Source: Tubulanus polymorphus (lineage: Eukaryota > Animalia > Nemertea). Taken from it: DNA of 64,000 nt. Positions 10,969-42,100 of the stretch are shown here, in pieces; position 1 is the first letter of the stretch, and each line of letters starts with the position of its first letter. The stretch is from positions 12,836,088 to 12,900,087 of the forward strand of contig NC_134031.1 of assembly GCF_964204645.1 (NCBI RefSeq), in the 5' to 3' direction. Position numbers and translations under genes: made by a program. The notes under the pieces are model-generated. The model worked only from the letters and a program-made list of their open reading frames with translations. It ran no database searches and had not been told where the DNA came from.

Positions 10969-11008
10969 ATCGGCTTTGATTCAATTTTAATAAAAATATG
11001 TATAATAA

Positions 11009-11338: not shown

Positions 11339-11353
11339 AAATATGTAAAATAA

Positions 11354-12075: not shown

Positions 12076-12092
12076 TTTTTTTCATTATATAA

Positions 12093-13470: not shown

Positions 13471-13486
13471 TTTTTATAAGATATAA

Positions 13487-15076: not shown

Positions 15077-15077
15077 A

Positions 15078-20828: not shown

Positions 20829-20937
20829 TGTTAGATGGCTAACACATCTTTTTTAACCAAATTTTAGCCCGCGCTTTAAATGAATATTGTGACTCCCTTG
20901 GACCACCAATATATTAAAAAAATGTAACTTGACGATG

Positions 20938-21210
20938 AGAGTAATAGGGAATATCTTGTTTCATACCAAAGGTCGAAAGGTCGAGCTCATAAAAAATGAA
21001 AAATATGAAAATAATAACAATTTCTATTTGAATTAGTAGCGAAACTCATATAAAATGAAAAATAATTCTCGCACACTCGAATTTATTTTTCATTTTATAT
21101 GAGTTTCACTCCTAATTCAAATAGAAATTATTATTATTTTCATATTTTTCATTTTTTACTCACTAGCCCTTTCGACCTTTGATATGAAACAAGATATTCC
21201 CTATTACTCT
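20938..21210. repeat. ~273-bp imperfect terminal palindrome of element C
   Basis: agagtaatagggaatatcttgtttcata...aaaatgaaaaataa / ttatttttcatttt...tatgaaacaagatattccctattactct. Loop around 21066-21080. Confidence 0.93.
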
Positions 21211-21287
21211 TAAAATATTCATATATATGAATAAAATATAAATGAATAACTTCTAAAATCAATTTTAATAAAAATTATAGTATTAAA

Positions 21288-21539
21288 ATGGAAGCAAATA
21301 AGTACTACTGTTCAACATGTAATATCAATATAGATAAATCCCAAAAAGCAAGACACAATAAAACTAAAACACATTTAGAGTATAAATTGAAACTAGAATA
21401 TTTACAGTTATATTTAGAACAGTTAACAAAGGCAAAGAAATTTATTGATCAATGGAACAATGATCCAAATAATGAACAATACGTTGAGGAATTTGATATC
21501 AAGGAATCGAAACAACTTATCAAAAGCAGCGAGGAATGA
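21288..21539 (+). pseudogene. Chimeric ORF: pPolB N-terminal zinc finger fused to an HNH-protein C-terminal tail
   Basis: The first ~39 aa nearly equal ORF 38052 (MEANKYYC.TCNINIDKSQKARHNKTKTHLE). QLYLEQLTKAKKFIDQWN...EQYVE resembles the end of ORF 21617. Confidence 0.8.
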
Positions 21540-21616
21540 AAAAGGATGACATTGGTCGAAGAAATGGAAGAGGATTCTAAAATATTAACCAATTTAGTAA
21601 AAAATACATATAATAA

Positions 21617-22270
21617 ATGGAACCAGAACAACCACAAATTATCAATATTACAAATAACACTGCTGGTTTTATAAATACATATTACAAGAAGTGTTCTAAG
21701 TGTGAATTAGATAAATCATTAACAGAATTTAATAAGTGTAAGATTAGCAAAGATGGTTTTCAATATTGCTGTAAAACTTGTTTTAAACTATATACCAAAC
21801 AATATCGAGAAGATAATAGAGAAGCCTATAATGATTATATGACAGAATATATGAGAGAAAGATATCAAACAGATCTTAATTTTAGATTAAAACAATGTTT
21901 ACGGTCTAGATTAACACAATTATTCAACAAAGAAACACATTCAGAAACATTATCTAATTTGTTGGGTTGTTCAGATGAATTTTTCAAATCATGGATTATA
22001 TTTCAATTCGATGATAAAATGAATATAGATAATTATGGTGAATACTTTCATATTGATCATGTGTTGCCGATTTCTAAATTTGACATGAATGATGATTATA
22101 AAAAGAAGCTAATCTGGAACTGGAGAAATTTAAGACCTTTAGAAAAGAAGGAAAACATAATTAAATCTAACAAACTAGATATACAGTTATATTTAGATCA
22201 ACTGGATAAAGCAAAGACATTTGTTGAATTATGGAATTCAACACATAATGAAAAATACGTTGAATGTTAA
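21617..22270 (+). CDS. HNH endonuclease of the large-DNA-virus type with an N-terminal CxxC...CxxC zinc ribbon
   Basis: CSKC...DGFQYCCKTC; LRSRL...LLGCS.EFFKSWI.FQFDDKMNIDNYGEYFHIDHVLPISKFD...WRNLRPL.KKENIIKSNK. Intact 217 aa with a TAAATG start. Confidence 0.85.
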   Translation: MEPEQPQIINITNNTAGFINTYYKKCSKCELDKSLTEFNKCKISKDGFQYCCKTCFKLYTKQYREDNREAYNDYMTEYMRERYQTDLNFRLKQCLRSRLTQLFNKETHSETLSNLLGCSDEFFKSWIIFQFDDKMNIDNYGEYFHIDHVLPISKFDMNDDYKKKLIWNWRNLRPLEKKENIIKSNKLDIQLYLDQLDKAKTFVELWNSTHNEKYVEC

Positions 22271-23429
22271 ACGCTTAGAAAACCGGTTACTCTCGATCTA
22301 TGTCAAACCGCCTGTATGTAATTGTATTAGGTTGTTTACAAAAGCATCTGTCGCACGTTATATTCAGTTGAATAGGGCGCACCTCATTTGAATATTGATC
22401 GAATGTGCTATTTCAGTTGAAAAGGATTAATCAATTATATTACAAAAGAAGGAACATCTGTTGCACCAGACGGTGTTTAGCTAGTGAATAACTGGCAGTT
22501 ATAAACGCGCAGCACATAAGCATAGGAACGTATAGGATATTCTCTCTATAAACACAATTTTAGGAGTTTACAGTTATAAATGTAAGTACTGTTTTTGTTG
22601 TTATTAAGGCGTTGGGAAACGTTAAACTTGTAAAACTTATCCTGGTAAGATGCGCCACAAAATGGTCATGTTTAAGTGTTGTAATTAATATTTTACAACT
22701 ACAACTTCAAGTTAGTTTTATTCTACGTGAGATATTTATCTTTTAGATAACAAAATGAAGACCATTGAATCTAGAAAGTGAAGATAGATGGATGTGGAAT
22801 CAGAAATAATGGATATTTCAACTCATGAGACTGTAGCAGTTTAGCCATACTGTATAGGCTTTCAATGCATTACGTTTGCCGGGAATTTCAATTGCGTCAT
22901 TAAGCTATTGTTAATGACACACAGTGACAGATGTTGTATTGTACTTTATTGATTCCTGCATTCCACGCATAACTTACCGCTCCTCTCTGGAGCGGCTTGG
23001 AATGTGGAAATCGATAATGATTGTAGAATAAAATATATATGTATTTATGAAATAGTATTTCCAACAGTCAGTTCTTTGAATTTATTTTCAGTTTTAGGAT
23101 TTATTTATCGAGAATCCGAAATGACTTATCTGGACAGTTATAATTACTGCTCCTAATAGATAAACAAAAGTAGTGAGATAATCTAAATCCTAATTTAAAT
23201 AATATATAATAATAAAACAATAACTTCAACTAGCTAGTGAATTCTATTATGTTTTTAATACTTTCTTTTCAAAAGAGAATACTTTATATTTTGAATAGAT
23301 TCAAATAGAAATTCTTTTAAGTTCAAATAGCTAGTATCAGTAGTCAATACTAGAATTCTTTAGCTTTAACTAGCTAGTATCATTTTATAATACTTATAAT
23401 ATTTTTCTTATTAAATTTCTCTAATATAA

Positions 23430-24032
23430 ATGTCAAAGAAATCGAGTAAGAATAATACTGATATTGAAAAAACATTAGATGATTTGGGTATAAGTGATAA
23501 TAAAGATACAGTTGTTTCTTATTCTATTCAAGTTAATAACAATATAGATTATGAATACTATTTATATTGTAAGCATCATATAGAACTATTGATTGCCGGT
23601 GGAAAAACTAATGAGTTTTTAAATAGAATCATTACTTTTCAAGAACTAGATGCTATGAAACCAGATAAAGTAATAAAATATTTTAAGATTTATGAAGAAG
23701 CAAGATTAGCTAGAATAAATGATTCTATTTCAGATGGTATTGTCAAATGTTACTCTAAGTTATGTAACCAGTTAATACCAATTGATGATGAAAATAAATT
23801 ATATAGTGATTTGAAAAATGACTACTTAGTTATGACTGAATTACGAAAATGGGTCGGTTATGCTTCATTCCAATTAGGATCTGTTATGACATTAATTTCT
23901 ACTGGCGTCATAACATTTTCGAACATCAAGCCTATGGAATATAAATCAGGTAAGAACGAAACACATGTACTACAACCAAACGTCGAAACAGAAAATGAAT
24001 CAGAACAAAAATTAACTAAGATAAATGAGTGA
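23430..24032 (+). CDS. Polinton hypothetical protein, 200 aa
   Basis: Intact ORF with a TAAATG start and a hydrophobic segment (YASFQLGSVMTLISTGVITF). Overlaps the next gene. Confidence 0.75.
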   Translation: MSKKSSKNNTDIEKTLDDLGISDNKDTVVSYSIQVNNNIDYEYYLYCKHHIELLIAGGKTNEFLNRIITFQELDAMKPDKVIKYFKIYEEARLARINDSISDGIVKCYSKLCNQLIPIDDENKLYSDLKNDYLVMTELRKWVGYASFQLGSVMTLISTGVITFSNIKPMEYKSGKNETHVLQPNVETENESEQKLTKINE

Positions 24033-24393
24033 TAGCGTTAAGAAAAATGCTAGATCTGAAAAACAAATTAAATGGGCAAGAGAATTAGGTAAAAGATCTT
24101 CAGAATTAAAAAAAGCTAAGAAAAAGAAATTAACTGATATAAATGAATCACAGACTTTATCTGATATTAATTCAAATAACAATCCATCTGATTCTTCTAA
24201 TGCTGGAAGAAATAATTACTTATATATTACAATTGGATTAGTAACAGTTATTATATTATCCGGTGTAATATATAAATCAAAATTCAAATCTGATGATAAA
24301 GATGATTCCAATGACAATAAACCTATCATACCAGAAAATAAGTCAAATCATAAAGTCATTGAAACTAAATCTAAATTATTATTAATGGATTAA
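24025..24393 (+). CDS. Small single-pass membrane protein, 122 aa
   Basis: Basic N-terminus and TM-like YLYITIGLVTVIILSGVIY. TAAATG start. Confidence 0.7.
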   Translation: MSDSVKKNARSEKQIKWARELGKRSSELKKAKKKKLTDINESQTLSDINSNNNPSDSSNAGRNNYLYITIGLVTVIILSGVIYKSKFKSDDKDDSNDNKPIIPENKSNHKVIETKSKLLLMD

Positions 24394-24399
24394 AATAAG

Positions 24400-25517
24400 A
24401 TGAAAAAAGAACAATATTTAAGAGATTTATATTATAACCCAGAAAGTGAAGTATCATATTCTAACGTTACAGAATTATGGAATAAAATTAAATCCGATAA
24501 TGAAAATGGTAATGGTGCCGTATGGCACCCACACGGTGATATAAAATATAATGAGTTAAAATCATGGTTACAAAATCAACCAACATATCAAATTCACAAG
24601 AAAATGAATAAAACTTATTTAACAAGAAAAGTTATGGTTTCATATATCGATCAACAATGGCAAGCAGATTTAATTGACATGAAGAACTTAGAAGAATACA
24701 ACAAAGGATATTTCTGGATATTGAATGTTATAGACATATTCAGTCGATACGCATGGTCAATTCCAATCAAAATTAAAACTGGAATAGAAGTTACAAATGC
24801 TTTTAAATCTATATTCAAAGAAGATATTCCAGATAAGATACAATTTGATGAAGGTAAGGAATTTTATAACAAACATTTCAAAAAACTATTATCTGATAAC
24901 GATGTAAAATATTTTCAACACACTCAGATAAAAAAGCATCTATTATAGAAAGATTTAATAAAACATTGAAAACTAGAATGTGGAAATGTTTTACTGCTAA
25001 TGAAACATATAAATATATCGATGTATTAGATGATTTAGTGAAAGGTTATAATAATTCTAAACATTCAAGTATTGGTATGTAACCTATGCAAGCTAGAAAA
25101 GAAGATAATTCAGAAATAGTTTGGAATAATTTATATGGAGCATTTGTTACACATGATTTCGGTGAACCTAAATTTAAAATAGGACAACACGTTAGAATAT
25201 CTAAATATAGAAAAACATTTTATAAAGGTTATACCCCTAATTTTACAGACGAAATATTCAAGATTAAAAAGATAACATTAACTAAACCTTTTGTTTATAA
25301 ATTAGAAGATCTAAAAGATGAAGAAATATTAGGTTATTTCTATGAACAAGAATTATCATTTGTACCAAATCCAGATGAAATAGAATACAAAATAGAAAAA
25401 TTATTGAAATCAAAAACTCTTAAAGGAAAAAAGTATTCTTTGGTGAAATATAAAGGATACGATGATAAATTTAATGAATGGATTTTATCTAGTAAAATTA
25501 AAAGAATAAATGAATAA
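24400..25517 (+). pseudogene. Retroviral-like (rve/c-INT) DDE integrase with C-terminal chromodomain; one frameshift and one stop
   Basis: YLRDLYYNP, WQADLIDM, LNVIDIFSRYAWSIPIK.KTG.EV..AF, IQFDEGKEFYN, then after a 1-nt loss at ~24915 STHSDKKASIIERFN.TLK. In-frame TAA at ~25080. FKIGQHVRISK, GYTPNFTDEIF, chromo-like YKIEKLLKSK...LVKYKGYDDKFNEWI. Confidence 0.93.
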
Positions 25518-26121
25518 AGATTTATTTATATTTGAACCGCATAATATGTTAGTTACTGGTGTAACCAATTGTGGTAAAACACATTTCATATTAGATTTGT
25601 TAGAAACTATTTATAAGAATCATTTAGATAACATAATATTATTTTGTCCTACTTATGAAATGAATAAAACATATAATAGAGATATAGTTAAGATAAAAAA
25701 GTTTATTATATTAGATCCTAAAACAGTAAAAGAAAATTTAGATAATTGTATTAAAATAGCAATTGATATCTATAAAGGATCAAATACATTATTCATTATA
25801 GATGATTGTGCTAATCTACATGATTCAAAAGTGAGAGAAAGTGAGTTATGTTATCTAGCTTTCTCTGGGAGACATTTCGGGATAACAACATGGGTTTTAA
25901 ATCAAAAATATAATTCAATTGTTAAAGACTTTAGGGAGAATATAAGATTTTTAGTTTTATTTTATAACAAAGATAGAAAATCTATGCAACAATCATTGGA
26001 AGAAAATCAAATTATACCTACTGAATTACATGATGAATATATGAATAAATTAAAGAATAATAAAGGTTCAAAATTATTACTGAGACTACAATTTCCCTAT
26101 GAATATAAGTTTATAAAATAA
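25510..26121 (+). CDS. A32/FtsK-HerA family genome-packaging ATPase
   Basis: Walker A GVTNCGKT, Walker B FIIDD, arginine-finger motif SGRHFGI and sensor NQ. Intact 203 aa. Confidence 0.93.
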   Translation: MNKDLFIFEPHNMLVTGVTNCGKTHFILDLLETIYKNHLDNIILFCPTYEMNKTYNRDIVKIKKFIILDPKTVKENLDNCIKIAIDIYKGSNTLFIIDDCANLHDSKVRESELCYLAFSGRHFGITTWVLNQKYNSIVKDFRENIRFLVLFYNKDRKSMQQSLEENQIIPTELHDEYMNKLKNNKGSKLLLRLQFPYEYKFIK

Positions 26122-26500
26122 CTATTTATATATCTATGTATTAGATACCCTATTAGATACCCTAATACCTGATACCCCATTAGATACCCTAATACCTGAT
26201 ACCCTATTAGATACCTTAAATACTTAAAACCCCCTTTTTTAAAATAAATATTATTTATACAATTTTCAACCAATTTATTTTTATTTTTTCAACAAATATA
26301 TGAATAAGTTTGAAAATAATAAAGGTTATTTATTATTACTGAGGTTTCAATTTCCATATGAATATCAGTTTATAAAATAAGATATTTTTATGTATTAGAT
26401 TGTATTAGATTGTATTAGATATGTATTAGATACCTTAAATACCTTAAATACTTAAAACCCCCTTTTTTATTTACTATTATTTTATACAATTTTCAACCTT
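26095..26500. repeat. Duplicated intergenic block with short tandem repeats at the convergence of the two gene arms
   Basis: atgaatat.agtttataaaataa...tgtattagatacc...ccttaaatacttaaaacccccttttt occurs twice (~26099-26240 and ~26358-26468), with ttagataccct and tgtattagat iterations. Confidence 0.8.
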
Positions 26501-26505
26501 TATTA

Positions 26506-27369
26506 TTATTTGATTGTTAGATAATTAATTTCTGAATCACTTTCATCATCACTCTCCAATTCATTATCAGGCCCTAACAATTTATTCAAATGCTCTACCG
26601 TGTCTTCATAAATAATTGGTTTATTGATATACTTATTAGGCATCTCAACTATATCTTTATTTTCTGATTTAAGTTTCATAGAATCTTTATTATCAATGCG
26701 CTTTCCTGTATTTTCATTATTATCTTTATTAGTGTTTGCTCCTAATATTTCATTTACAGTGTTTGATCCTAATATTTCATTAGCATAAGTTATATCTAAT
26801 TCATCTTTATTAGGTGTTGCTAATAAAAAATCTTCATATAATTCTTTACCATTTACTTCTTTATTTGAAACAAATTTTGTAACATATCTAAATGGGTGTT
26901 CTATAAATTCTCTTAAACCAACACGTTCTATAACATTAGTAATATGTGAATTTGTATTCATATGTTTATTCCAATTTGATGGAGCGTTTGAAAATTCACC
27001 TTTACAATAATCACAATAATTTCTATTTTTACTTACATTTAATATTATTGCATTATTATATGTAGTAGGTATTACATTATTAGATGTAGTAGGTATTACA
27101 TTATTAGATGTAGAAGGTATTACATTATTAGATGTAGTAGGTATTACATTATTAGATGTAGTAGGTATTACATTATTATCAATTACATTACTTAAATTAT
27201 CAACAACACCACCTTTATTATTATTGATTTCTATTAGTTTAGTTTTATAAATTTTGAAAATAGGATCAAATATCAAAGCTATATTACAAGGTATTACATA
27301 ATATAAACCATCATTATTTTCATGTGTATCGATGTATGGAATATGTTTATATACTTTACCTCCTTCCAT
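26506..27369 (-). CDS. Zinc-finger protein with 8-aa repeats, 287 aa
   Basis: CDYCKGEFSNAPSNWNKHMNTNSH (C2H2-like), five NNVIP(T/S)T(S/Y) repeats and an acidic tail. TAAATG start. Confidence 0.75.
   Translation of the reverse strand: MEGGKVYKHIPYIDTHENNDGLYYVIPCNIALIFDPIFKIYKTKLIEINNNKGGVVDNLSNVIDNNVIPTTSNNVIPTTSNNVIPSTSNNVIPTTSNNVIPTTYNNAIILNVSKNRNYCDYCKGEFSNAPSNWNKHMNTNSHITNVIERVGLREFIEHPFRYVTKFVSNKEVNGKELYEDFLLATPNKDELDITYANEILGSNTVNEILGANTNKDNNENTGKRIDNKDSMKLKSENKDIVEMPNKYINKPIIYEDTVEHLNKLLGPDNELESDDESDSEINYLTIK
27051..27178. repeat. 24-bp coding minisatellite (5 copies)
   Basis: cattattagatgtagtaggtatta repeated. Encodes NNVIPTTS. Confidence 0.95.
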
Positions 27370-27404
27370 TTATTATATATATTTTTATATTTTAAGTTAA
27401 AATT

Positions 27405-28652
27405 TTAATACATAACACTATCTAATTGTGTATTTACAATATTTAATTGCGCGTCAGATATAATATAAATGTGCATTTTGAAATTTTTGATTCCTTTATT
27501 CTTTGTCATGAATAATTGTATTCCATCTTTAGTGTTCTGTAATTTTTTTCCAGAACCATGTAATGAATTATCCTCTGTTGTTCTAAAATCTAACCATAAT
27601 GCGTATTTATTACCGGTATATTAATCAATTTGATTAATGTTACAATTTTCAGATGATTTTACTTTTTCATTCATAAAATGTTTTCTAATTTCTGGCCATT
27701 GATCTATCATTCTCATTCCTTGACAAAATATTTTATTTGCTATTCCTTCGATAGTTATTTCTACTTTTGTTATTTCAGGATTATAATACTTATCAACCTG
27801 TATTGCACCATTAGTATATGTTGCAATGGTAATAAATATCAATATACCTTTAATAGATCTTCTTGGGAAGTTAATATTCTCATTAATTATTTCATCATTT
27901 GCATTAATAGTTACAGTTTTAAATTTAACAATATAATCATATAATAATGAAAATCCTTGATTGTATTTAGTTTGAATTATACTTGAAATATTTTCATCAG
28001 TTACTGTATCATATTCTAAACATATATTCGATAATTTATAACTCATATCTTTAACAACGCTAGATAATACAATTTCATTTACAGGAGTAAATGTTATTTC
28101 GAATATAACGTCTTCTTGAATTGCGTATTTATATAAAGGCGCATTATTATTTATCAATTCAAAGTCTAATGGAATTTTATATTTGTTTCCATATATACTT
28201 TTTATCAATTTATCTATAGAATTAGTTAATATTGCATTATGTGCTTCTGATCTTAATTTATTTTGGTTTTCTGATTGGATTCCTTGAAATATCATATTAT
28301 TTCTATTTTCTTTAGTTAACCATAAATCTTTATAATGCATAAATAAATTATAATCATCTAATGAGAAAACTTTTTCTGGACCAATCTTTATAGTTAATTT
28401 TTTAATCAAATATCTCCCAACATTATCAACAACATAATTATTATTATTACCGATTACTTTTATATCGGCTGATAAATAAATATTATTTGGAACATAAAAA
28501 GTATTTTGTGTTAATCTCGGAATTCTAACATATAAAGTTTCATCAGGATTAATATTAGAAGGGTTATGAGTAATTATATGATGTGATCTTTCTGCTTTAA
28601 TAGCATTAGATATTCTATGATTCTTAGAAGGATTGATATAACTCCCACTCAT
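27405..28652 (-). pseudogene. Major capsid protein (putative double jelly-roll), ~415 aa, one premature in-frame stop at 27621
   Basis: HNPSNINPDETLYVRIPRL, VVDNVGRYLIKKLTIKIG, KYKIPLDFE, YKLSNICLEYDTV, NFPRRSIKGILIF, YNPEITKVEITIEGIANKIF. The frame continues past TAA as YTGNKYALWLDFRTTEDNSLHGSGKKLQNTKDGIQL...SDAQLNI. Size and context fit an MCP. Confidence 0.82.
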
Positions 28653-28672
28653 TTATTTAACAAAAAAATTAA

Positions 28673-30031
28673 TTACTTATTTTTGATCATGTTTACTAAC
28701 CCAAAAATAATTGCACTTACAACTGTAATTAAAAATAAAATAATATGTTCAGCAGCAAAGTTAATAATGTTTCCTGCAGATTTCAATATAAAACCAACAA
28801 TTGATGCAATAACTCCTGGCAATGCTGCAGCAGATTTCTTTGATAGTTCCCATAAATATTTTGCTAATTTCTTTAAACCATCTTTAACTTTATCTTGTAT
28901 AGAATTATTATCATTCGGGGGTTTATCTGGTTTATTGACAGTAGGAGTATATTTTAAAGCATTTGATATAGCTAAACCAATTGTTGTAAATACCATAGTT
29001 ACAGCTGTTAGAATTGAAAGAATTGTTATTCCTTCTAATTTAAATAATAATTTTATTCTATCTTTCAATGATATTTTAGAATTTGGTTTTATCAACAAAT
29101 CTTTAAAAACATCTTTTAATCTTTTAAAATTATTACCAAATTCTTTTAATAATATATCTCTTTCACCTTTCAGTACTTCTAAATTATCTTTTAAATTATT
29201 AATTTCTTTTTCTAAACCTAATTCTTTTTGCCTATATTCTATTTCATCAATTGCTTGATGGTCTAAATCAGACTTTAATTTTTCTATTTCTTTATTTTTA
29301 TCAGTTAATTCTTTTTCTAAATTGTTAATTTTAATATCTCTTATACTTTTTTCATTCGCAATTTTATCAGCCGATTCTTGCATACCTTTAATTTCTCTAC
29401 GTGTTTGTTCAGGATATAATTCTAATTCATCATCAGTTAAATCAAGTAATCCCTTCGGTAAAAGTTTTTCAGTTTGAACTTCGTTTGATTTAGGTTTACT
29501 AGTTTTGGAAGTTTTATTCTGTTCAGAAGTTGTTTCTGTTTCTGGATTATCATCGATTATTTTAAATAAGTCATCAATTCTTTGACTAAATACTCTTATA
29601 TTATCATCTCTTTCTTCTTGTGTAACATTGGTTATTTCATTACTAATACGTATTCTCTTAATTTTATCTGGACCTAATTTTCTCAAAGTTGATTCCGCTA
29701 ATATTAAAAGTCTGGCGCCTCTATCATTTATATTATATCCAGATTCTTTAAATACACGTTGAAAATCATACATAAAATCAATATTTTCAATATCTTCCTT
29801 TGATAAACCTGGGTCTAAATTTTCAGTAGGTATTCTCGATCTAGTTCTTCTATCAAATTCATCTGTTGATGGGGCTTTAGAACCACTATCAGCTAAATTA
29901 GAATTATATGTTGTATCATTATCATTATCAATATTAGTATCAGCAGTCATATAATCATCATTGTTAGTATTGGCATCATCATTATTTCCCATGCCTTCCA
30001 TTTCATAATCTTCTCCACCTTTTACATTCAT
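28673..30031 (-). CDS. 452-aa protein: acidic N-terminus, coiled coil, C-terminal hydrophobic helices
   Basis: Coiled coil ~INNLEKELTDKNKEIEKLKSDL. Hydrophobic GITILSILTAVTMVFTTIGLAIS, ALPGVIASIVGFIL and IILFLITVVSAIIFGLV. Confidence 0.8.
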   Translation of the reverse strand: MNVKGGEDYEMEGMGNNDDANTNNDDYMTADTNIDNDNDTTYNSNLADSGSKAPSTDEFDRRTRSRIPTENLDPGLSKEDIENIDFMYDFQRVFKESGYNINDRGARLLILAESTLRKLGPDKIKRIRISNEITNVTQEERDDNIRVFSQRIDDLFKIIDDNPETETTSEQNKTSKTSKPKSNEVQTEKLLPKGLLDLTDDELELYPEQTRREIKGMQESADKIANEKSIRDIKINNLEKELTDKNKEIEKLKSDLDHQAIDEIEYRQKELGLEKEINNLKDNLEVLKGERDILLKEFGNNFKRLKDVFKDLLIKPNSKISLKDRIKLLFKLEGITILSILTAVTMVFTTIGLAISNALKYTPTVNKPDKPPNDNNSIQDKVKDGLKKLAKYLWELSKKSAAALPGVIASIVGFILKSAGNIINFAAEHIILFLITVVSAIIFGLVNMIKNK

Positions 30032-30047
30032 TTACATAATAAAAAAA

Positions 30048-31373
30048 TTAAAATTTAAAATATAATATTCCTCCGATTACAATTCCTAAACAAGTTAAAG
30101 CTAATTTAGCATTTTCATGGGATTTATTATCATCATTTAGTTTAATTATATCATGTTGAATATTATCAGTTTTTATATTTTCTGATGTATTGTAATCTTT
30201 TATTTTAGAATCATTATTTAATTTAATATTCTTAGTTTTAGTTTCAGTTGATTGAATATGTTTTTTATTTTTTTCACCTTCCATTAATTTTGGAGCAGTA
30301 ATTATCTTTTTATTTATATCATTTAATCCAAATGAATTATTTATTGTTGCAGTTTTAATTAGATTATTATAACCAATTATGTTTCCCATCTTTAATACTA
30401 AATCATTAGAAATAATAAATAGATTAGGGCCTATACAATAATTTAATCTAATATGTGATTTATCTAAATAATTTTGATATCTTACAATGTTTTCTGGAAT
30501 AGATCTTTTTTTATCATTATGAATTGAATCTTCAAATAATACTTTAAATTGTTTCTGCGCATCGAATGAAGTGTTATCATTTCCAACTATTGGTGATCTT
30601 GTTTCAACTTGAGCACCTAAAATACATATCAAATAAGTTCTAATAGATTGATTTATTCTTTGTATTCCAGCTTTAGTAAAACCTTCTCTATTTTCTAAAA
30701 TGAAATTAACCCAACCATTATTATTTTGTTGTTGTATATTATTATAATATTTTGGTAATTCATTCCAATTTAGTGTTCTTATATCTGAATTTGTCATTAT
30801 TTTTCCAAATTCTTTAGTATACAATATTCCTAATCCACCCATTGTTCCAATTTTTGCTCTAAAATCTTTATTTGAATTAATATTAAATTCATTACATATT
30901 TTATAAAACTTAGAAAAATTAATATTATTATTCAATTCTTTAAAATATTTTGAACCTGGTAAAGGACATTCTAATTCATCTAATATTAATTTCATTTGAA
31001 AATATTTATGAAATCTAAAAAGTGATAATATCAATGGTAAACTTGGTTTGTTTAAATGATCATTCCAACTAATTCCACATCCTGTTGTTGCGCAATAAAC
31101 AGCAAAATTTAATTGGTTCTGCCAATACTTCATATTAGATTTTAATAACCATTGTTTTGCCTCATTTAAATTTTTGAAATTAATTGTATACACATGAAAT
31201 ATATTTTCCATCTTTACATGAAAATTATTACTTTCAGTTACATAAATATATAAATCAATTAATGAATTTAAAACTTCATTTCTATATGTAATATCTTTAT
31301 TAAAATCTATTGCTGGAATATTATATTTAATTGATTTATTATATTGGAAAGCTTTTGGAAAACTATTTGCCAT
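30048..31373 (-). CDS. 441-aa conserved Polinton protein with C-terminal membrane anchor
   Basis: YWQNQLNFAVYCATTGCGISW and GFTKAGIQRINQSIRTYLICILGAQVETRS are conserved with copy A. Tail LALTCLGIVIGGILYFKF. Confidence 0.82.
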   Translation of the reverse strand: MANSFPKAFQYNKSIKYNIPAIDFNKDITYRNEVLNSLIDLYIYVTESNNFHVKMENIFHVYTINFKNLNEAKQWLLKSNMKYWQNQLNFAVYCATTGCGISWNDHLNKPSLPLILSLFRFHKYFQMKLILDELECPLPGSKYFKELNNNINFSKFYKICNEFNINSNKDFRAKIGTMGGLGILYTKEFGKIMTNSDIRTLNWNELPKYYNNIQQQNNNGWVNFILENREGFTKAGIQRINQSIRTYLICILGAQVETRSPIVGNDNTSFDAQKQFKVLFEDSIHNDKKRSIPENIVRYQNYLDKSHIRLNYCIGPNLFIISNDLVLKMGNIIGYNNLIKTATINNSFGLNDINKKIITAPKLMEGEKNKKHIQSTETKTKNIKLNNDSKIKDYNTSENIKTDNIQHDIIKLNDDNKSHENAKLALTCLGIVIGGILYFKF

Positions 31374-31454
31374 TTATATAATTAAAAAATTAATTATTTA
31401 TTAATTCTTTTAATAATTTATCTTGTTCTTCAACTGTTATATGACCATTTAAAC

Positions 31455-31823
31455 TTAAATATAATCTAGTGTATTCTTTAATTTATTAATTTCTTTTATA
31501 TTAGTTTTAATTTTTTCTTTATTACTTTTTATATTTAATTTTGAACTTATACCAGTTAAAACACTTGAACTTAATCCTAATACACCAATTGATATAGCTA
31601 AAGGTGTTAATGGACTGAATATTGCTAGAAATGTTATTACAGAACTAATTGTAACCGAACCACTGATAATAAGATAATATATAATTTTACTTTTTAAATA
31701 TTTTTTCTTTTTTATCTTTAAGTCACTTTCAAATTCTAATATTTGTTTTTCTAAATATATTTTTAATTTAGTTTTATTTATATCATGAGGAATAATATTA
31801 ACACCATCAACTTTATCATCCAT
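31455..31823 (-). CDS. Two-TM membrane protein flanked by coiled/basic segments (C-terminus probably cut by a premature stop)
   Basis: IIYYLIISGSVTISSVITFLAIF and LAISIGVLGLSSSVLTGIS. TAAATG start. Confidence 0.7.
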   Translation of the reverse strand: MDDKVDGVNIIPHDINKTKLKIYLEKQILEFESDLKIKKKKYLKSKIIYYLIISGSVTISSVITFLAIFSPLTPLAISIGVLGLSSSVLTGISSKLNIKSNKEKIKTNIKEINKLKNTLDYI

Positions 31824-31841
31824 TTATTTAGCAAAAAATTA

Positions 31842-32264
31842 CTAATCAGTAAATTTATAAGCAACAAATATAACAATAACTGTTCCCCCTAAAATCCAAA
31901 TTATTTCATATTTCTTCTGTTCATTACTTGGGGTATAATAATCTGATATTGTACGTTTGTATAGATGTAATTTTTCTTTATTGGTTACTGCGTTATATAA
32001 ACTCATTGCATCATCAACTGATTGAAAATCTCTATGTGAAATCTTCTGATCATATAATTCTTTATTGATGTAATCCATATAGTTTAGTCTCTTTTCTCTA
32101 TATTCTTCCGCTGCTTTATTATATTTCTCTAATGCTAAGTTATGTCTTTTTTGTTCGGTTAATGAACCATTTTTATCAATATGCTTGAATAAATAACCAC
32201 CACCAGTAAATGCTAAATCGTTAACAATTGCTGATCCTATAATAGTTATAACTGCAGAAGCCAT
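31842..32264 (-). CDS. 140-aa membrane protein (hydrophobic N- and C-termini)
   Basis: MASAVITIIGSAIVNDLAFTGGGYLF ... IIWILGGTVIVIFVAYKF. Confidence 0.78.
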   Translation of the reverse strand: MASAVITIIGSAIVNDLAFTGGGYLFKHIDKNGSLTEQKRHNLALEKYNKAAEEYREKRLNYMDYINKELYDQKISHRDFQSVDDAMSLYNAVTNKEKLHLYKRTISDYYTPSNEQKKYEIIWILGGTVIVIFVAYKFTD

Positions 32265-32288
32265 TTATTTAGTAAAATAATTATGCAT

Positions 32289-32510
32289 TTATATGGGAGG
32301 AATATATTTTTGTTTTTCTAAATAATCAATAGTTAAATTAGATAAAGTAACTGCTAATTTTAATTTTAAAATATCATTTATATCAAATCTATCAACAATA
32401 ACACTTCCCATTTTAAATACTTTTTTTAATACCATTGAATAACCAACAGTTCCAACTGATAGTAATGCGCCATTATATAATCCAGTTATTATCCACTTAT
32501 TATCACTCAT
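32289..32510 (-). CDS. 73-aa hydrophobic protein
   Basis: WIITGLYNGALLSVGTVGYSMVL and ILKLKLAVTLSNLTIDYLEKQKYIP. TAAATG start. Confidence 0.7.
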   Translation of the reverse strand: MSDNKWIITGLYNGALLSVGTVGYSMVLKKVFKMGSVIVDRFDINDILKLKLAVTLSNLTIDYLEKQKYIPPI

Positions 32511-32867
32511 TTATTTATCAAAAAAATTACTATCATCAAAATATTTAGTTATCTTATTTATGATTAATTCAACATTTATTTCATTACTAGTTTCATTTGT
32601 ATATATTTCAATTATTATTTTTTTAATATCATCGATGATAAAATCTTCATCTAATTCATAAAATCTTAAAGATTCTCTTATTAAATTAGTAATCTTTTCT
32701 ACATTTAAAGTTTCTTTATTTATTGTTGTTTCATACTCAAATATTGTTTCATTAGAAAATGTAATATTTTTGATATGTGTAATTACATCAGTAATGTTAA
32801 ATTTCATTTCTTTCTCATGTTTAAAATCAAACCCAAAACATATACTCGGCCCAACAGTTATATTCAT
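32511..32867 (-). CDS. Polinton hypothetical protein, 118 aa
   Basis: Intact ORF. Its start is conserved in copy A (12093) and it has a TAAATG context. Confidence 0.7.
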   Translation of the reverse strand: MNITVGPSICFGFDFKHEKEMKFNITDVITHIKNITFSNETIFEYETTINKETLNVEKITNLIRESLRFYELDEDFIIDDIKKIIIEIYTNETSNEINVELIINKITKYFDDSNFFDK

Positions 32868-32883
32868 TTATATAGTGAAAAAA

Positions 32884-33643
32884 TTACTCTTTACATCTTA
32901 TAACTAATTCATATATCACAGGAAAGTTATTCAAATCAATTAAATAACCATTATGATTTCTTATTTCTAATTTAAAATTATTAAATTTAGGAATGCAAGG
33001 TTTAAAATCACATTCCGTTAAATTATAATTTATTTGAGTTCCAAATTGTTTAAAATTTTTTAGCGGTAAAATATTTAGTATACTAGAACTACAAATTGTT
33101 TCTTTAGTTGCTTCGAAAGTTTTTGTAGGCTCGATTAAATTGCAATAAATATTAAAGTGTGTAAAAGGTATTATATTTGAATTACCATCTATGTTTCCTG
33201 TAACAGTATCTGGTGCAATTCCTAGCAATTTAGCTAATGGTTTTTTTTACCATAAATGCATGTTGACTTTCATCAAATACCTTTATTTTAATTTTATTTG
33301 TGCTATCACTTTTTATAAATCTAATTAAAAATTTATCATCTCTTCTAATTTTCAACCGTGCTCTTCGATTAATTTCTTGAGCTAATGATTCTAAATTATA
33401 TAATCCTGGTTTTAAAATTATATGAAACCATTTATCTATATTTCCAATATGAATTAAAAAAGTATTATCTTCAATAGTTTTATCCGTTAAATTATAAAAA
33501 GAATTACATAAACTTATATTAACTAATTTTAAATCTACACAATTCTTGAATTCTCTATCTAATTGTACTAGTAAATTATGAGATTTATAATTTGTAAGCC
33601 TTCTAGAATCAACAAATATTCTGTATTCTTTTAATTCTACCAT
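32884..33643 (-). pseudogene. Minor capsid (penton-like) protein, ~250 aa, one +1 frameshift in an A-run at ~33245
   Basis: IFVDSR, LVNISLCNSFYNL, LKPGLYNLESLAQEIN, LAKLLGI, IYCNLI and LEIRNHNGYLIDLNNFPV resemble the single jelly-roll minor capsid pattern of Polintons/PLVs. Confidence 0.72.
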
Positions 33644-33657
33644 TTATTTTACATATT

Positions 33658-34009
33658 TTATTCGAAATCTATTTCATAATGCCCTTTTTCATTCTTACCT
33701 TTGTATTCGAAATAGAAATCTCCAGAACATAATTCTTCTAAATCTTCACTTGATAATCTATGAAATCTATCTGGTAAATATGTTCTGAATTTATACGTAT
33801 TTCCTTTTAATCCTTCATATTCTAAGTGTATAACTAATTTATCTCCATAGTTATTAGTAACTGTATAAATATTTGTAATTAGATATTTCTCATGAATTGT
33901 TAATTGTTAACTTTTTGAATTTATAATCTACAGATTTTACATTTGTTATATCTTTAATTCTATCTAGAAATAATTTGTTGTTCTCACTGTGTGTTTGTTT
34001 ACTCTCCAT
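33658..34009 (-). pseudogene. Small MESKQ protein (~117 aa, possible OB-fold/SSB), frameshifted at ~33905
   Basis: Homologous to ORFs 11009 and 48127 (KYLITNI.TV.N.YGDKLVIHLEYEG...FRTYLPDRF). Confidence 0.65.
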
Positions 34010-34038
34010 TTATAATACATATTTTTATTAAAATTTGA

Positions 34039-37000
34039 TTAACACGTTAGAATTCTTTTCATTATTCCGTTCTCTTTTGTTTCTTCTCTTTTAGATTTTA
34101 AGTATTCATCTAAATTGCAACCATAAGCAACTGTATGAATTCCATCATCTAAAATATATCTTTTATCATCAAATGGGTTTAGACTAATCTTTTCAATTTC
34201 TTCAATAAACATTTCATGATCTTCACATCTTAAACATCTCATTTTATGTTTTCTAACTTCTTCATTGAATATACAATTGATGTAATCTTTGAAATGAATA
34301 TTCTTTTCTACTACACTTTTGGTTATTCCTTTTAACTTTTTAGCTTCATGTTCTTTAGTTTTATATGAATACATTTTAGATCTAATACCTATGAACTCTA
34401 TCATTTCTTCACCACCTAATTCATCTTTGAATTTACCGGGAACTTTTGTATTATCATTGCTAAACAATTCATGATCTTTAGGATAATTACTGAAATCAAA
34501 ATGATGTTTTAATGTTTTTAAATCATCAGTTATGTTATCAGTTTTTATCTTTAATATGTAAGAATCTGTATCAAAACATAATATTTCTATATGTTTTTCT
34601 CCAAAAAGTGGTTGTAATATATTATAATAGAATTCATACATTAGTAATTTTGATAATTCTAAAACTGATGCTCCAACATAAATTGGTTTATTAAATTTCA
34701 TAGATGTTCTTCTCATCTTAACTGCAGCTAAATTTTCATCAAATATTCTGTTACCTATAAATTTAGGATATGTTTGTAAATGCCTTATCCTTTTGCCATT
34801 ACTAACTAACTCAATATCATTTCTATTTCTAATATATTCACAAGTCTTACCATAGAATGCATTATTCATTAGTTTGAAGAAATCTTTCTCGAAATCAGTT
34901 TTAGCTTTAGTTCTCTGTTTGGTGTTAAAATCTATATATTTTTCTAACCACTTAGATTGACTAAATGAAATATAACTATGTACTTTTTTTTAGAATCATT
35001 CCTTGTTTTAGATAAAACTTTGACATTCTGTAATGTACTACATAATTATATTGATCTTCTTGAGTTACCATTAACTTTTCTGTATGAATATGATTTTCGG
35101 GTTTAATTCTTTTTTGATAATTTGATAATTCTTCATGAGTTACAGTTTTATGTTCGGGACAGTAAGCTAGATTTCTAGATTTAAATTTAATATGTTCAGG
35201 ATATTCTAAATCTACAACAAAGAAGTAACCAGTATCTGAATCATCTGCAATATCTAGAATTCTTTTCTTCCAATCAAATTTATCATTATTTTCATTCTGT
35301 AAAACTTCAGTTAATTCAAATACTCCATAAGGTTGTGGTTCCATCATTGCACAACGATACAAATTATTTGCATCTATATATAATAACTTATATCCAGGGT
35401 TATCATTTACATTGAAATATCTATCACCTAATACACCTGATACTCCTCCTCTTATAGATTTTTCAAATAATAGTAATTGATCTATATTTGTTAACAAATC
35501 CATTTTTATATCTGTAAATTTTAATCCACAATCCCATGTTAAACCTGGTGATGAATAACAATGACAAGGATCAATGTTAAAATATTTTAGGTTTACATCT
35601 CTAAACCTTTCGAATATATCGGTTAATAATAATACATCTGATTTTAAATATAAATCTACTAATTGCCCATGATTTTCTATTTTGAAATGATTCCAAATAT
35701 TCAATGTTCTATTATATACTTCATCTTTAACATATTCATTTTTTAATTCATCATAGAATTGTTCTTTCAATAATTCAGTTATATTGAAATCATTATAATT
35801 TTTATAGAAAGCATATGGAATTGCGCCTTTATATCTCATTAATTGGTAATCATCATTATTTGGATAGTGTTGTTTTAATATTTTTAATTCATCATCAACT
35901 AATGATTTATGAACTATTAACTAGTTATTACACTACTAATAACTTATTATTACACTAGTTATCTAATGAACTATTTAAAAATCTATATGAATCTATAAAT
36001 CTTAAACACCCAAATTGGAATGATATATAATTCTCTGATGTTTTAGCTAACATTCTAAATTTATAAGTTGGAATTTTATCTTTTGATCTATTTGAATTTA
36101 ATCTTTCTATTTCATTATTAATTTCTTCTATTTTATTACATAACTGTTTGATGAATAAATGTGCATCATATCCTGATAGATTATGAAATATAACTGGTAC
36201 AAAGTTAATTTTCTTAGCTTGTAAGTTACAATTCTTATGTGCAGCGCCTCTAAACTTTCCATTCAAATGATCATGGTCTCTTACTTTTTTATCTTTATAA
36301 TTAAATATCTTTTCACAATAATAACATTTATCTGCAAACGCAAATGCTTCTTTATCTTCTTCTGTCATTATAATTTCTATATTTGTATTCAATAATTTAC
36401 TAAATCTTATTTCATATTCAATTAATAAGTCACAAAAATGATTGATAACATTTTCATTTCTATAATCATAATATTCACTTTCAATTAGTTCTGGATAATC
36501 AGATTTTATATATAACCCGAAAGCTGCGGCTGATTGATGAATCTTTTTAATAGTATTTGTTTTTGGTGGTTCATCTGAAAAATCATTTTCATTAGAATTT
36601 AATTTCTTTCTTTTATAATATATTTCTTTTCTATCTTGATCAGTTAGTTCTTTATTTAATGATTCAAAATCTCCATATATTACAAATGGTACTTTATTTT
36701 TGTAATCATATTTTTTGAATTCTAATATTTTATCTTTTTCATTTGGTAAAACTAATATACAATAATCATGATTTTCACATAATTGTTTATGATTTAATAA
36801 TGCACTTTCATTACTGAATCTATGTAAACATTTTCTACAAAGATATATTTTATGGAGATCATTTTCTGATTTAAAAAATAAATCTATTTGTTTAATCCAC
36901 ATATAATGATTCTCATAATATAGTATATCTATAACGTCGTTTGAATCATAATCTTTTGATAGGTATAAAGGTTCTAATGTATAATGTTTTATGTTGTTAC

Positions 37001-38052
37001 CTTTTGTATTTAGTAATTTGGTTAAATAAAATACATTTATCTTTATATTATTATCTCTTTCTATTTTTGGGATGTTTTTAATTATAACAGGATACTTATC
37101 TATCTTATAATTATTTTCAATTGTTTATAATGAGTTATTCTAAAACTATGTTGTTTATAATCTTCAACTGGGTGTAAACAACTCATTATAGCCCATAGAA
37201 AACATTTATCACCTTCATTTTGTACGTTTATTACAGCATTAGTTTTAAATGGTAGTTTAATATAACTTGATGCTTCAATATCTGGTTCTTTATAATATGA
37301 TACATTATTTTCATCAATTGGTTTTGATTTAGTTAACTTATTATATTTTGTGTTATAAACATGTAAAGTCATAAATATTATTTCATCAAATATTAAACCA
37401 GATCCTTCAAAATATTTCTCTTCTATTTTAGTTTTTACTTCATTATAACATTTATCTAATTTATCATCTATATATTGTTTAGATATAATATGTTGTGAAT
37501 GAGAATTTATATTATATATTGGTTTATCTTCAGATTTTATGAATTTAACTTTTGATGAAATACTTATTTTAGGATATTCAACATCAGTTATTATTTTTAT
37601 TATTTCATTCATATTTTCTAAATGTTTTTTATTTCCTTCTAATTTTCTTCTTTTTTATTATCTAATGAATTAATATAATTTCTTACATCTTCCATGTATG
37701 GTCTTTTATTGTTTAATTTATTTTTTATGTTTTAAATTGTCTTCTGTTTCTTATCATTATCTTTATCAAAATAATCTTCACCTAAAATATCATTATTCTT
37801 ATTTCTAATATGACTTTTAGATTTTAAATGTTCTTTATAATATCTTTTATCACTGAATGATTGATTACATGTATCACATTTGTATATTTCTCTTTCATTC
37901 TTTAATTCATCTAATTTAGTTTCTAATATATCATCTTCATATTCTAGTTTCAATTTATTCTCTAAATGTGTTTTAGTTTTATTGTGTCTTGCTTTTTGGG
38001 ATTTATCTATATTGATATTACATGTTGGACAGTAGTACTTATTTGCTTCCAT
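34039..38052 (-). pseudogene. pPolB, ~1300 aa: N-terminal zinc fingers, terminal-protein/OTU-like region, exonuclease with embedded EndoVII-like domain, polymerase; several lesions
   Basis: ORFs 38052, 37612, 36902, 35839 and 34869 are collinear. Motifs: CPTC..H..H, CDTC..H..H, EGSG, SSYIKLP, VINVQNEGDKCFLWAI, HYMWIK, IYGDFES, CYYC..VRDHDHLNGKFRGAAHKNCNL, FHNLSGYDAH, YIDANNLY, KLMNNAFYGKT, DTDS, KVPGKFKDE, RSKMY, KKLKGI. Confidence 0.95.
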
Positions 38053-38255
38053 TTTAATACTAAATTTTTTATTAAAATTGATAGAAGTTCAATGATTTAT
38101 ATCATGTATTATTTCAATCACACTTTACTAACACTTTTAATGTTTAAAAATCTAACTCACACAAATATGAATATTGAAATAATGTTGTAAATATATACTT
38201 TTATATTGAATAATCTGTCAATTTAAATGTTATTCATTTACATGAATATTTTAAG

Positions 38256-38665
38256 AGTAATAGGGGAATTGGGCTTTCAGGTTAAAGGTTGAATGGTCGA
38301 GTTCATTAAAAACAAATATTAAAAGTAATTTAAAACTATAATATATTTTCATAACCGTGTGTATTTCAGTTGAATAATAGAATAATTATTATTATTTGAA
38401 TATATTTGATTATATGAATTTGTGTATTGTAAATAAATCAATTGGTCACGGAGCGGAGCGGTAGCGAAGTGGAGCGACCAATTGATTTAATACAATATGC
38501 TTTTAAAATTTAAATCATTAATATCCTAGAATAAATATTTAGTTATGATATAAAATACACACGGTTATGAAAATATATTACAGTTTTAAATTACTTTTAA
38601 TGTTTTGTTTTTTAATGAGCTCGACCGTTCGACCTTTGGCTTGAAAGCCCATTACCCCTATTACT
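38256..38665. repeat. ~410-bp imperfect terminal palindrome of element B with a GC-rich apical loop
   Basis: agtaataggggaattgggctttca...aatatattttcataaccgtgtgtattt pairs with aaatacacacggttatgaaaatatatt...tgaaagcccattacccctattact. Inner stem taaatcaattggtc / gaccaattgattta surrounds acggagcggagcggtagcgaagtggagc. Confidence 0.93.
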
Positions 38666-38914
38666 AACACTTCTCTTAATGGAACAGACCGCGAAAGTGA
38701 CTTTCTCCGCAGCGCGAGTTTTGAAGGGCTAACGACCTACCAACTCAACAGAGAACAAGACACTGACAATAAACGGTTAAAGGAAATGTACAAAGTAAGG
38801 GGAAAATTAACGTCGAACCCCTCGTCTGAAGACATTAAAACGCTGAAACATCGTATCTCAGCGAGAGAAGAGGAAATAACACGCCGTAAAGCCAATATCA
38901 ACAAGAAGAAATGA
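38666..38914 (+). pseudogene. Probable C-terminal remnant of LINE ORF1
   Basis: An open 82-codon frame starts at the Polinton terminus and ends ...EEEITRRKANINKKK* about 200 bp before ORF2. Confidence 0.5.
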
Positions 38915-39110: not shown

Positions 39111-42100
39111 ATGGCTACTGATGGTATGAAAATAGCGAGTCTCAATTGCAATGGACTCGTAGCCTCAAAAATCAAAAGACTCAATATTTTTGATCGGCTA
39201 AAGCATTCTGATATATTTCTCCTCCAGGAGACGCATATAAGGAATGAGGACGAGGCAAAAACCCTTTTTAAAAGTATAAGTAAAGAATACGAAATTTTCA
39301 CCAATAATAATATTAATCGTATTAATGGGGTAGCAATCGGGATAAGTAGAAAATCTCATTTCGACCTGGGACATTGTACCAGAGATACACAAGGTCGCGG
39401 AATATGCTTAAAATTATTGATCGGTAATAAGAGATATAAAATAATCAATATATACGCTCCAAGTAAAGACAGGCAAAAGAAAGAGTATTTTCAATCAATT
39501 CCAGATCTTATTGGTAACGCTGAAAACACGAAGGTAATTATCGATGGAGACTTTAACTGTATAGAAAATTATTCCTTAGATAGACAATCAGCTCATTCCA
39601 ACCCTAAGGCAACATATGGTGCTGAACAATTAGCCCAATTGTGTAGTTCATATCGTTTAGAGGACCCATTGAGGGCCTTAAACCCTGCAAAGAAGGCTTT
39701 TACTAGATTAACTAATGTCAATAATACAATTACTATGACTAGAATCGATAGATTCTATGTCTCTCAATGTGTCACTAGCGATATAGAAACAATAGCGCAC
39801 TTAAATTCAATCCATTCAGATCACAAACTAGTGTCAATGACTATACGCACAAACCAACTACCAAAAGGCAAAGGATTTTGGCATCTAAACAATGACCTTT
39901 TGAATAACGAAGAATACATCGAGTTAATAACCAACACTTGGAGCAAGTGGCAAAAACACAAAGTTTTGTATGATAACATCCTTCAGTGGTGGGATGACGG
40001 TAAAAAGTTAATCAAATCCAAGTCTACCCAATTCTCTAAAAAACTTGCCAAATCTAGAAACGAACTGAAACGCAGACTCGAACTTTATGTTTTGGAGGGC
40101 CGAGCAAGTGAAGGTCTGAATTATAATCGTAATAGACTAAAAGATATCATAACAATAATCAAACAAATTGATGATAATAAAACGAAAGGTAACATGATAA
40201 GAGCCAAAAGAATGGAGAGAGGAAGGTTAAAAAACATCCAAATTTTTTGCAAATTTAGAAAAACAAAGAGGAAAAATTAATCGTATAAACGGCCTTTATA
40301 ACGATTTCGAGGAACTTAAAACTGACCAAAATGATATAATGGATATTGAGGTTAGCTTTTAATATAAAAAACTATACACTAGAGAAGTAACCAATCCCGT
40401 TACTCAAGAACGATTCCTACACAATTTACCGCAAGTCCATAACCCAGAGATAATCGATGGACCGATCACGCTTGAAGAATTAACAAATTCGGTTAAATCG
40501 TTTAAGCTAGACAAGTCGCCGGGTATTGATGGATTGTCTAGCAATTTTTATGTTCAATTTTGGCCAATTCTGAAATACGATGTCCACGAAGTCGTGTGTG
40601 AATGTATTCGTTTAAATACAATTACAGAATCTATGAAAATTGGCGTAATCACTCTCATACACAAAAGAGGGGAAAGAACACGCTTAGGAAATTGGAGACC
40701 GATAACTTTACTTTGTACAGACTATAAGATTATAACTAAAACTATTTCAAATAGGTTAATTACTGTTTTGACAGATATTATTAATCCTGATCAAACATGT
40801 AATGTTAAAGGTAGACGGATCCATGACAATTGTCACATAATCCGTGACCTAATCCAGTATACCAACGATGAAAATATTGAGGCCTTTCTATTAGCGATCG
40901 ATCAGATGAAGGCATTTGATCGAGTAGATTGGTCATATATGTTCAAATCCCTGAAATCGTTTGGCTTCGGCGAAAATATAATCAAATACATTGAAATGTG
41001 TTATTCTGATCCCAAGTCTTTGATTAAAAGTAATGGTTTCCTTACAAATCCATTCTCTCTTGAACGAGGAGTAAGACAAGGGTGCCCAATGAGTGCGCTT
41101 CTCTATATTATTGTAGCTGAAACCTTAGCAATTAGAATAAGGCGCGATCCAGAAATTGAGGGTATCACCTTGCCAAACGGGGAAGTGTGTAAAATGAAAC
41201 AATATGCTGACGATACAACCCTAACCTTAACAAGTATTGAATCAATCAAGAAACTTTTCCATGTTCTAACGGAATTTGAGCAATCTTCTGGAGCCAAAAC
41301 AAATAAAGAAAAGACGGAAGGTTTATGGATTGGTGCCTCCAAGAATAGAACGGATAAACCCCTAAACCTAAATTGGTCAAACAGACACATAAAAATATAT
41401 GGCATGTATTTTGGTCTTGGTGACATCGATAAACAAAATTGGGAACGAAAGATTAACACAATTGCAAACATAATAAATCAATGGCGACAGACTAAACTGT
41501 CGTACAAAGGCAAACGGGTAGTTATTAATTCGTTCATTTTACCTGTCTTATGGTATGTCTCAGAAATTTATCCTTTACCCAATATTTACGTCGAACGTAT
41601 TCAGAAAAAAATTAACGGTTTTCTTTGGTCTTATGGTAAACATTATGTAAGAGCGGAGATAATCTATCAACCCTTAAGCAGTGGTGGATTAGCAATTAAT
41701 AACATTAGTTGTAGAGTAATGGCCCAAAGGGCACGAACTATCCTAGTAGAAATGAATCGAAGATCTAAATGGAGAACATTACTGAATTATTATCTTAATC
41801 AAGTGCTAGGACAGGGCTGGATAGATTCCCTTATAAATGAAAATTTCATAAATAGAGAAACTCGGAATTCATACTACAAAAGCCTTTTAACCGCGTGGAA
41901 GTATGTTATGGCTCTCATTGAACCGAAATGGTCGAAGCACGATATTAAGAATAACTTAGTGTTTAATAACCCCTCAATAACTGTCAATGGTAGGACCTTG
42001 AATTATCCAGAATATACTGACATAGGTTTAACAAATATCAAGCATTTCTTCGATGAATACGGTAATTTCAAAGATATTGATAATTTTACGCCGATATTAG

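Follow-up and report, generated by a model that had tools for sequence, protein, structure and literature searches.

The gene starts of a polinton-like virus integrated in the genome of the nemertean Tubulanus polymorphus carry two types of TAAATG motif, preceded by a T-run (T-type) or by an A-run (A-type), and these two types are real, selected and lineage-specific. The element is AT-rich, frameshifted and decayed, and it spans 17.7 kb (20940-38665) of the window, by which we mean the whole stretch of 64,000 nucleotides (nt) analysed here (RefSeq assembly GCF_964204645.1, contig NC_134031.1, positions 12,836,088 to 12,900,087 of the forward strand). On comparison of sequences, we read the motifs as promoters that would be used in two stages by the polymerase of a poxvirus-like helper, with a rough probability of 0.45. 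Summed over the readings considered below, it is likely that the polymerase of some helper virus reads these motifs and, to a lesser degree, probable that this helper is pox-like.

Two types of start motif at the genes of the element

The start motifs of the element are listed below with their strand, followed by the gene (lengths in amino acids, aa; ORF, open reading frame); for the integrase, the gene itself is given.

21598..21619, +, A-type start motif, HNH-like gene (21617-22270)
23411..23432, +, ambiguous, T-leaning start motif, 200-aa gene (23430-24032)
24006..24027, +, A-type start motif within the upstream coding end, 122-aa membrane-segment gene (24025-24393)
24400..25517, +, rve integrase-chromodomain gene, broken, two ORFs (Pfam)
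25491..25512, +, A-type start motif within the integrase coding end, A32 packaging ATPase gene (25510-26121)
27367..27388, -, A-type start motif, 287-aa zinc-finger-like gene (26506-27369)
28650..28671, -, T-type start motif, double-jelly-roll major capsid gene (27621-28652)
30029..30050, -, T-type start motif, 452-aa coiled-coil, membrane-segment gene (28673-30031)
31371..31392, -, T-type start motif, 441-aa conserved gene (30048-31373)
31821..31842, -, T-type start motif, 122-aa two-membrane-segment gene (31455-31823)
32262..32283, -, T-type start motif, 140-aa gene with hydrophobic ends (31842-32264)
32508..32529, -, T-type start motif within the end of the 118-aa ORF, 73-aa gene (32289-32510)
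32865..32886, -, T-type start motif (A-type in the relative L003), 118-aa gene (32511-32867)
33641..33662, -, A-type start motif, penton (minor capsid) gene (33230-33643, truncated)
34007..34028, -, A-type start motif, broken MESK gene
38050..38072, -, A-type TAAAATG start motif, pPolB gene (34039-38052, five ORFs)

TAAATG, a late-type initiator, was found at 14 of the 17 gene starts and TAAAATG at 2, both of the latter belonging to the same terminal repeat, whose A-type start is common to an 83-aa ORF and pPolB; the integrase start (24400) was the sole exception in the window copy. The proportion of TAA(A)ATG starts (16/17) compares with ~11% by chance, TAA preceding 53 of the element's 499 first ATGs (p about 1e-11), and TAAATG is not avoided internally. 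When T residues were counted between -12 and -7, with positions numbered from the T of TAAAT (T score), eight starts gave 1-2, seven gave 5-6 and one gave 4, the last being the 200-aa gene at 23430 (T=4 of 6), which is T-type in 3/3 relatives (L001, L003 and L004). As the earlier note on this DNA had described, the seven genes starting at 32867, 32510, 32264, 31823, 31373, 30031 and 28652 carry a run of T4-7, a spacer of 6-7 nt and TAAATG, and the motif at 32510 lies within the last codons (SNFFDK*) of the 118-aa ORF; the consecutive order of these seven genes has a post hoc p value of 6e-4. The A-run motifs that had been quoted for the ATPase, zinc-finger, penton, MESK, HNH and pPolB genes were also correct, except that the HNH gene (21617) lies outside the range 24005..38080 to which they had been assigned. 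The 122-aa gene at 24025 and the copy of the terminal inverted repeat at 21288 are A-type as well.

The T-type pattern was present at 7/16 starts versus 1/39 non-start TAAATG sites in the element (p=4e-4), and the A-type pattern at 8/16 versus 1/39 (p=8e-5), both patterns having been defined after inspection of the sequence. In a label-blind mixture model of 43 starts taken from the window, L001, L003, L004 and L005, two classes beat one by 41.6 nats in leave-one-out evaluation, while six column-shuffled controls gave -29.8 to +3.3 nats. The model trained on the 28 starts of the relatives alone assigned 14/15 window starts cleanly (probability of at least 0.999), namely the seven T-type and seven A-type genes, and left the 200-aa gene open. 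Since the training set contains orthologues, this result shows conservation as well as structure. A position not used in scoring also separated the types: T at -4 occurred in 7/8 T-type versus 0/8 A-type starts in the window and, with five mixed starts set aside, in 18/24 versus 2/14 overall, and the types differ at -5, too. T at -10, a position that was used for classifying, was found in 23/24 T-type versus 4/14 A-type starts. Among the A-type starts of the window T stands at -10 in 1/8 and at -9 in 7/8, a result that hinges on the numbering, and a TTT-purine-TAAA block was present in 6/14 A-type versus 0/24 T-type starts.

Conservation of the motif types among relatives

The check proposed in the earlier note, conservation of class per orthologue, came out positive among close relatives, in which the class was retained in 18/22 orthologue pairs of 12 genes (r=0.74, permutation p=0.006; the set excludes L002, near-identical to L001, the HNH gene, and the integrase, whose start has no motif in the window). 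The N-terminus of the HNH gene differs in relatives, and its start is T-leaning in L001. Of the four misses, one concerned the L003 copy of the 118-aa gene, two concerned the 122-aa gene at 24025 (class retained in 1/3 orthologues) and one was a tied ATPase. In most of the 11 pairs compared, fourfold-degenerate sites were saturated or nearly so (for instance, 0.40 observed and 0.41 expected for the capsid gene of the window versus L003), with the 140-aa pair as an exception (0.65 versus 0.43). In the alignment of the 118-aa/73-aa junction, identity rises sharply at the motif; its embedding in the coding end is not conserved, the relative L003 having a 19-nt intergenic gap there.

The capsid tree, a quick version with 41 rows from 68 loci, places the window in a 15-row clade in which TAA precedes 55/63 homology-supported starts, whereas TAA precedes 0/94 starts in the 18-row sister clade. 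TAAATG follows lineage and not base composition, because it is present at a GC content of 0.44 (L007) and absent from AT-rich members of the sister clade (0.26-0.28). Beyond the closest six rows the capsid gene is still more T-rich than the ATPase gene (4.2 versus 2.6, p=0.011). Sister lineages have other contexts before ATG, TATA-like or long A-runs (L014, L030, L031, L033, L039, L049, L061; L019, L026, L035-L038, L055), of which the TATA-like context just before ATG resembles asfuvirus late initiators; GC-rich sister members show no start context motif. To judge from their sequences, these differing contexts may reflect different helpers.

Comparison with poxvirus promoters

In the available excerpts of the papers cited here, on which our numbering of vaccinia positions rests and which are later papers, vaccinia late promoters have TAAAT(G) and, 10 nt upstream, a conserved T that is missing from intermediate promoters (PMC11980589). 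The promoter cores lie about 6 nt (late) and 11 nt (intermediate) upstream (PMC12722222), and the intermediate core extends from -26 to -13 relative to the start site without a consensus, followed by a spacer without protein contacts (PMC12917281). With T4-7 and a 6-7-nt spacer at seven genes, and with the T at -10, the T-type matches this published late-promoter geometry well, and the A-type appears to match intermediate promoters partly. The gene content agrees loosely with the vaccinia stage classes, in which the A32 ATPase is intermediate and late genes encode mainly membrane and morphogenesis proteins (PMC11980589, PMC12722222).

A possible two-stage helper programme and its alternatives

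If the motifs are two-stage promoters of a poxvirus-like helper, the element would be transcribed by the helper RNA polymerase in the cytoplasmic factory of the co-infecting helper. Initiation would take place at the A's of TAAA, where slippage of the polymerase would put a 5' poly(A) leader immediately before the AUG. The A-type genes (polymerase, packaging ATPase, penton, zinc-finger and HNH) would fire first, at the intermediate stage, and the T-type genes, for the major capsid protein and several proteins with membrane segments, would follow at the late stage. More tentatively, the clade may have copied both post-replicative promoter classes of such a helper and may use the stage factors of that helper for an intermediate-then-late cascade of its own, sister lineages having swapped their start motifs (TATA-type, A-run or none). 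The two-stage cascade borrowed from a helper, as the earlier note had put it, is consistent with the two types, their conservation among orthologues, the late geometry of the T-type and the gene content, RNA polymerase not having been detected by Pfam among the 23 window ORFs.

Several observations weigh against this two-stage reading. The A-run lies 2-3 nt nearer to TAAA than the vaccinia intermediate core, so that of the vaccinia parallel drawn earlier the late half stands and the intermediate half fits less well. Its invariant A's at -13 to -10 straddle the sequence-free spacer of vaccinia, and the T enrichment of A-type starts in the upstream core is not significant (p=0.10). T at -9 is common to both types (11/14 A-type and 24/24 T-type), and therefore a one-base shift of the numbering makes both look late. 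Three of the eight A-type motifs overlap A-rich coding ends. The 118-aa gene of the T-block turns A-type in L003, and in deeper TAAATG lineages the classes are inseparable: for 48 starts the two-class model falls 16 nats short of a single class, and the A-to-T step has one mode. The capsid-fold protein D13 of vaccinia is, in the excerpts available, intermediate and not late. The penton gene, a structural gene, is A-type, and the deoxynucleoside kinase of a relative (L003:10340-10981) and the integrases of L001 and L003 have T-type starts; because of these genes the split is not one of structural versus non-structural genes. Two motif scans of viral contigs gave no helper: the 17 and 16 matches were all single, and at no locus was TAAATG used in a genome-like way. 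In unrelated viral contigs, 11/16 matches of the exact A-type motif (several of them redundant) stood at ORF starts, compared with 3/17 for the exact T-type motif, and TAAATG was used at only a minority of ORF starts in the matched contigs. The A-type alone is hence not pox-specific, and the argument for a pox-like helper rests on the near-universal TAAATG and the geometry of the T-type.

The main rival, which we consider somewhat unlikely, is that a pox-like helper reads all the motifs as a single late class whose strength is tuned, with a strong T-tract for abundant virion proteins and a weak A-tract for the low-copy polymerase, ATPase and penton. In 1989, Davison and Moss reportedly found T-runs to make vaccinia late promoters stronger than A-runs do. 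The two types indeed follow a common pattern (exclusively A or T from -15 to -11, T at -9 and A at -1), the deeper lineages form a continuum, and the penton, a low-copy structural protein, is A-type, as tuning would have it. On the other hand, the types differ also at -4 and -5 and are sharply bimodal in the close clade, and the A-type is mostly without T at -10, which marks intermediate promoters in the excerpts of PMC11980589, although this position was used for classifying. A helper from another group of large DNA viruses, neither a poxvirus nor close kin, with convergent AT-rich promoters, seems unlikely, slightly more so than tuning. The A-type motif also stands before genes of viral contigs that are unrelated, among them a giant-virus metagenome-assembled genome, which would agree with such a helper, as would the TATA-ATG or A-run-ATG contexts of sister lineages and, in excerpts of the virophage literature, the use by virophages of the motifs of their giant virus; no poxvirus was linked to this host in the present analysis. 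It is opposed by the minority share of TAA-ATG among the ORF starts of those contigs versus 55/63 in the clade, by the asfuvirus late initiator, which is TATA, and by the mimiviral early motif, which was not enriched (13 matches versus 17.5 expected).

It is quite improbable that no helper promoters are involved, TAAATG being due to stop-start coupling or AT bias and the T-runs to upstream terminators or host-polymerase signals. All seven T-type genes of the window are tandem, several T-runs directly follow the upstream stop and some A-runs are Lys/Ile codons, in keeping with this explanation. T5+ runs are depleted in coding strands; this is not diagnostic because it is common to the sister clade. 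Between tandem neighbours the T-run is fixed to the downstream ATG while the gap to the upstream stop varies from 0 to 107 nt, and before the capsid gene it persists at six loci with a divergent neighbour (T=6, 5, 6, 4, 5 and 4). Because its position tracks the ATG and it survives divergent neighbours, the T-run fits a promoter element, and the terminator reading of the T-runs was rejected. An origin in AT bias is contradicted by the GC contents given above for L007 and the sister clade, and T at -3 is a poor context for host initiation. Some divergent pairs have spacers of 19-30 nt that carry back-to-back TAAATG starts (L009:2017-2046, L010:370-399, L016:788-819, L052:999-1029 and L001:5548-5568), where the T-run of one gene is the A-run of the other.

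Regarding relatives of the element itself, none was found in four protein scans of viral contigs, and a prokaryote collection gave 2 contigs, both of the non-TAAATG type.

The element, its copies and its surroundings

The element as a whole and its terminal features are as follows.

20940..38665, decayed integrated polinton-like virus (read ends, Pfam pPolB/rve integrase/A32 ATPase, capsid folds)
20940..21210, left terminal fold-back palindrome (128-nt arms, 92%; fold z -24)
38256..38665, right terminal fold-back palindrome (nested inverted arms, 57 and 59 nt)
21258..21401, +, inner terminal inverted repeat (144 nt, 97%), mate 37939-38082

Its pPolB, rve integrase and terminal inverted repeats, together with the capsid proteins and the ATPase described next, identify the element as a polinton or polinton-like virus. 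The major capsid protein, about 70 aa shorter in the window than in relatives, gave a model with pLDDT 81, whose top Foldseek matches were the PBCV-1 capsid and D13 (E about 3e-7), as for a double-jelly-roll protein. The packaging ATPase matched Pfam Pox_A32 (E 3e-11), and the penton was identified via its orthologue in L003, which is intact (254 aa) and has a fold like the mavirus penton (E 1.5e-5) in a low-confidence model (pLDDT 52). Membrane-like segments occur in three of the seven T-block proteins. The 441-aa protein of this block belongs to a family of 1372 representatives without a Pfam or PDB match, for which no function was found, and a search with the 140-aa family gave no function, either. 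An adenovirus-type protease, as in canonical Maverick/Polinton elements, was absent by Pfam among the 23 window ORFs.

In a DNA run with the same organism label, read ends cluster at 20940 and 38665 with mixed flanks, and the depth is even along the element; we therefore regard it as a member of a many-copy integrated family. No 6-bp target-site duplication was present, as the flanks 20934-20939 and 38666-38671 differ. Both fold-back palindromes join the inner inverted repeat at the same junction, and the ends look like hairpin termini, which is unexpected with a protein-primed polymerase. Terminal fold-backs were not seen among seven relatives checked, in most of which the ends are missing. 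The window contains two further partial copies, also decayed (about 7000-15667 and 43386-49936), in inverted orientation, with 98-99% identity to each other and about 88% to the main copy, and their surviving gene starts retain the same motif classes as the main copy. A LINE retrotransposon with endonuclease and reverse transcriptase in two ORFs (39111-42918) adjoins the right end of the element, a 118-bp tandem satellite (49930-64000) begins at the point where the third element copy is cut off, and a fragment in the flank without a Pfam match is presumably BEL/Pao-like. The LINE and the satellite by themselves show that the host is a eukaryote, and the BEL/Pao-like fragment would suit an animal. 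The convergent ATPase and zinc-finger genes are separated by 26140-26500, with short tandem repeats and two C-run/T-run units, which are possibly terminators.

Implications

The link between polinton-like viruses and poxviruses has previously consisted in co-occurrence in insect occlusion bodies only. If our reading is true, an initiator of the poxvirus type, used throughout a clade and accompanied by two conserved upstream types, would provide evidence of transcriptional dependence at the level of sequence. The start motif of a lineage would then indicate the kind of large virus that it parasitises and point to poxvirus relatives yet to be discovered in the hosts. Predicting the class of helper that an integrated element uses would then require no more than its DNA, and the motifs, being short and natural, are testable in standard vaccinia reporter systems. 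Our literature searches, whose coverage left out most subscription journals, brought up neither a promoter analysis of this kind for a polinton nor a satellite with a motif-encoded two-stage programme.

Comparison with known systems

Compared with vaccinia, as far as the excerpts of PMC11980589, PMC12917281, PMC12722222 and PMC5294985 go, the element has the same TAAA(T)G initiator fused to ATG and, in one class, a T-tract about 6 nt upstream; the other class is A-rich upstream without T at -10, and the packaging ATPase belongs to the non-late class in both. The capsid-fold gene differs, being T-type in the element and intermediate in vaccinia. The virophages mavirus/EMALE, Sputnik and Gezel-14T are likewise integrated or satellite, lack RNA polymerase and carry the promoter motif of the helper, which varies between clades, whereas their helpers are mimiviruses. 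In the excerpts of that literature, Sputnik has early and late gene groups that no motif separates, Gezel-14T carries the early motif, and none of these virophages is reported with two post-replicative motif types. With Maverick/Polinton elements, the element has in common pPolB, rve integrase, A32 ATPase, major and minor capsid proteins, terminal inverted repeats and many genomic copies; it differs in having no detected protease, long fold-back ends, no matching target-site duplication and clade-wide TAAATG starts. Polinton-like viruses that occur with entomopoxviruses (Barth et al. 2024, PMC11296320; excerpts, in which the word 'promoter' occurs 0 times in the main text) encode a protease and are without rve integrase, whereas the present element has rve integrase and no detected protease; like it, they are small double-jelly-roll viruses, and they have been proposed to depend on poxviruses.

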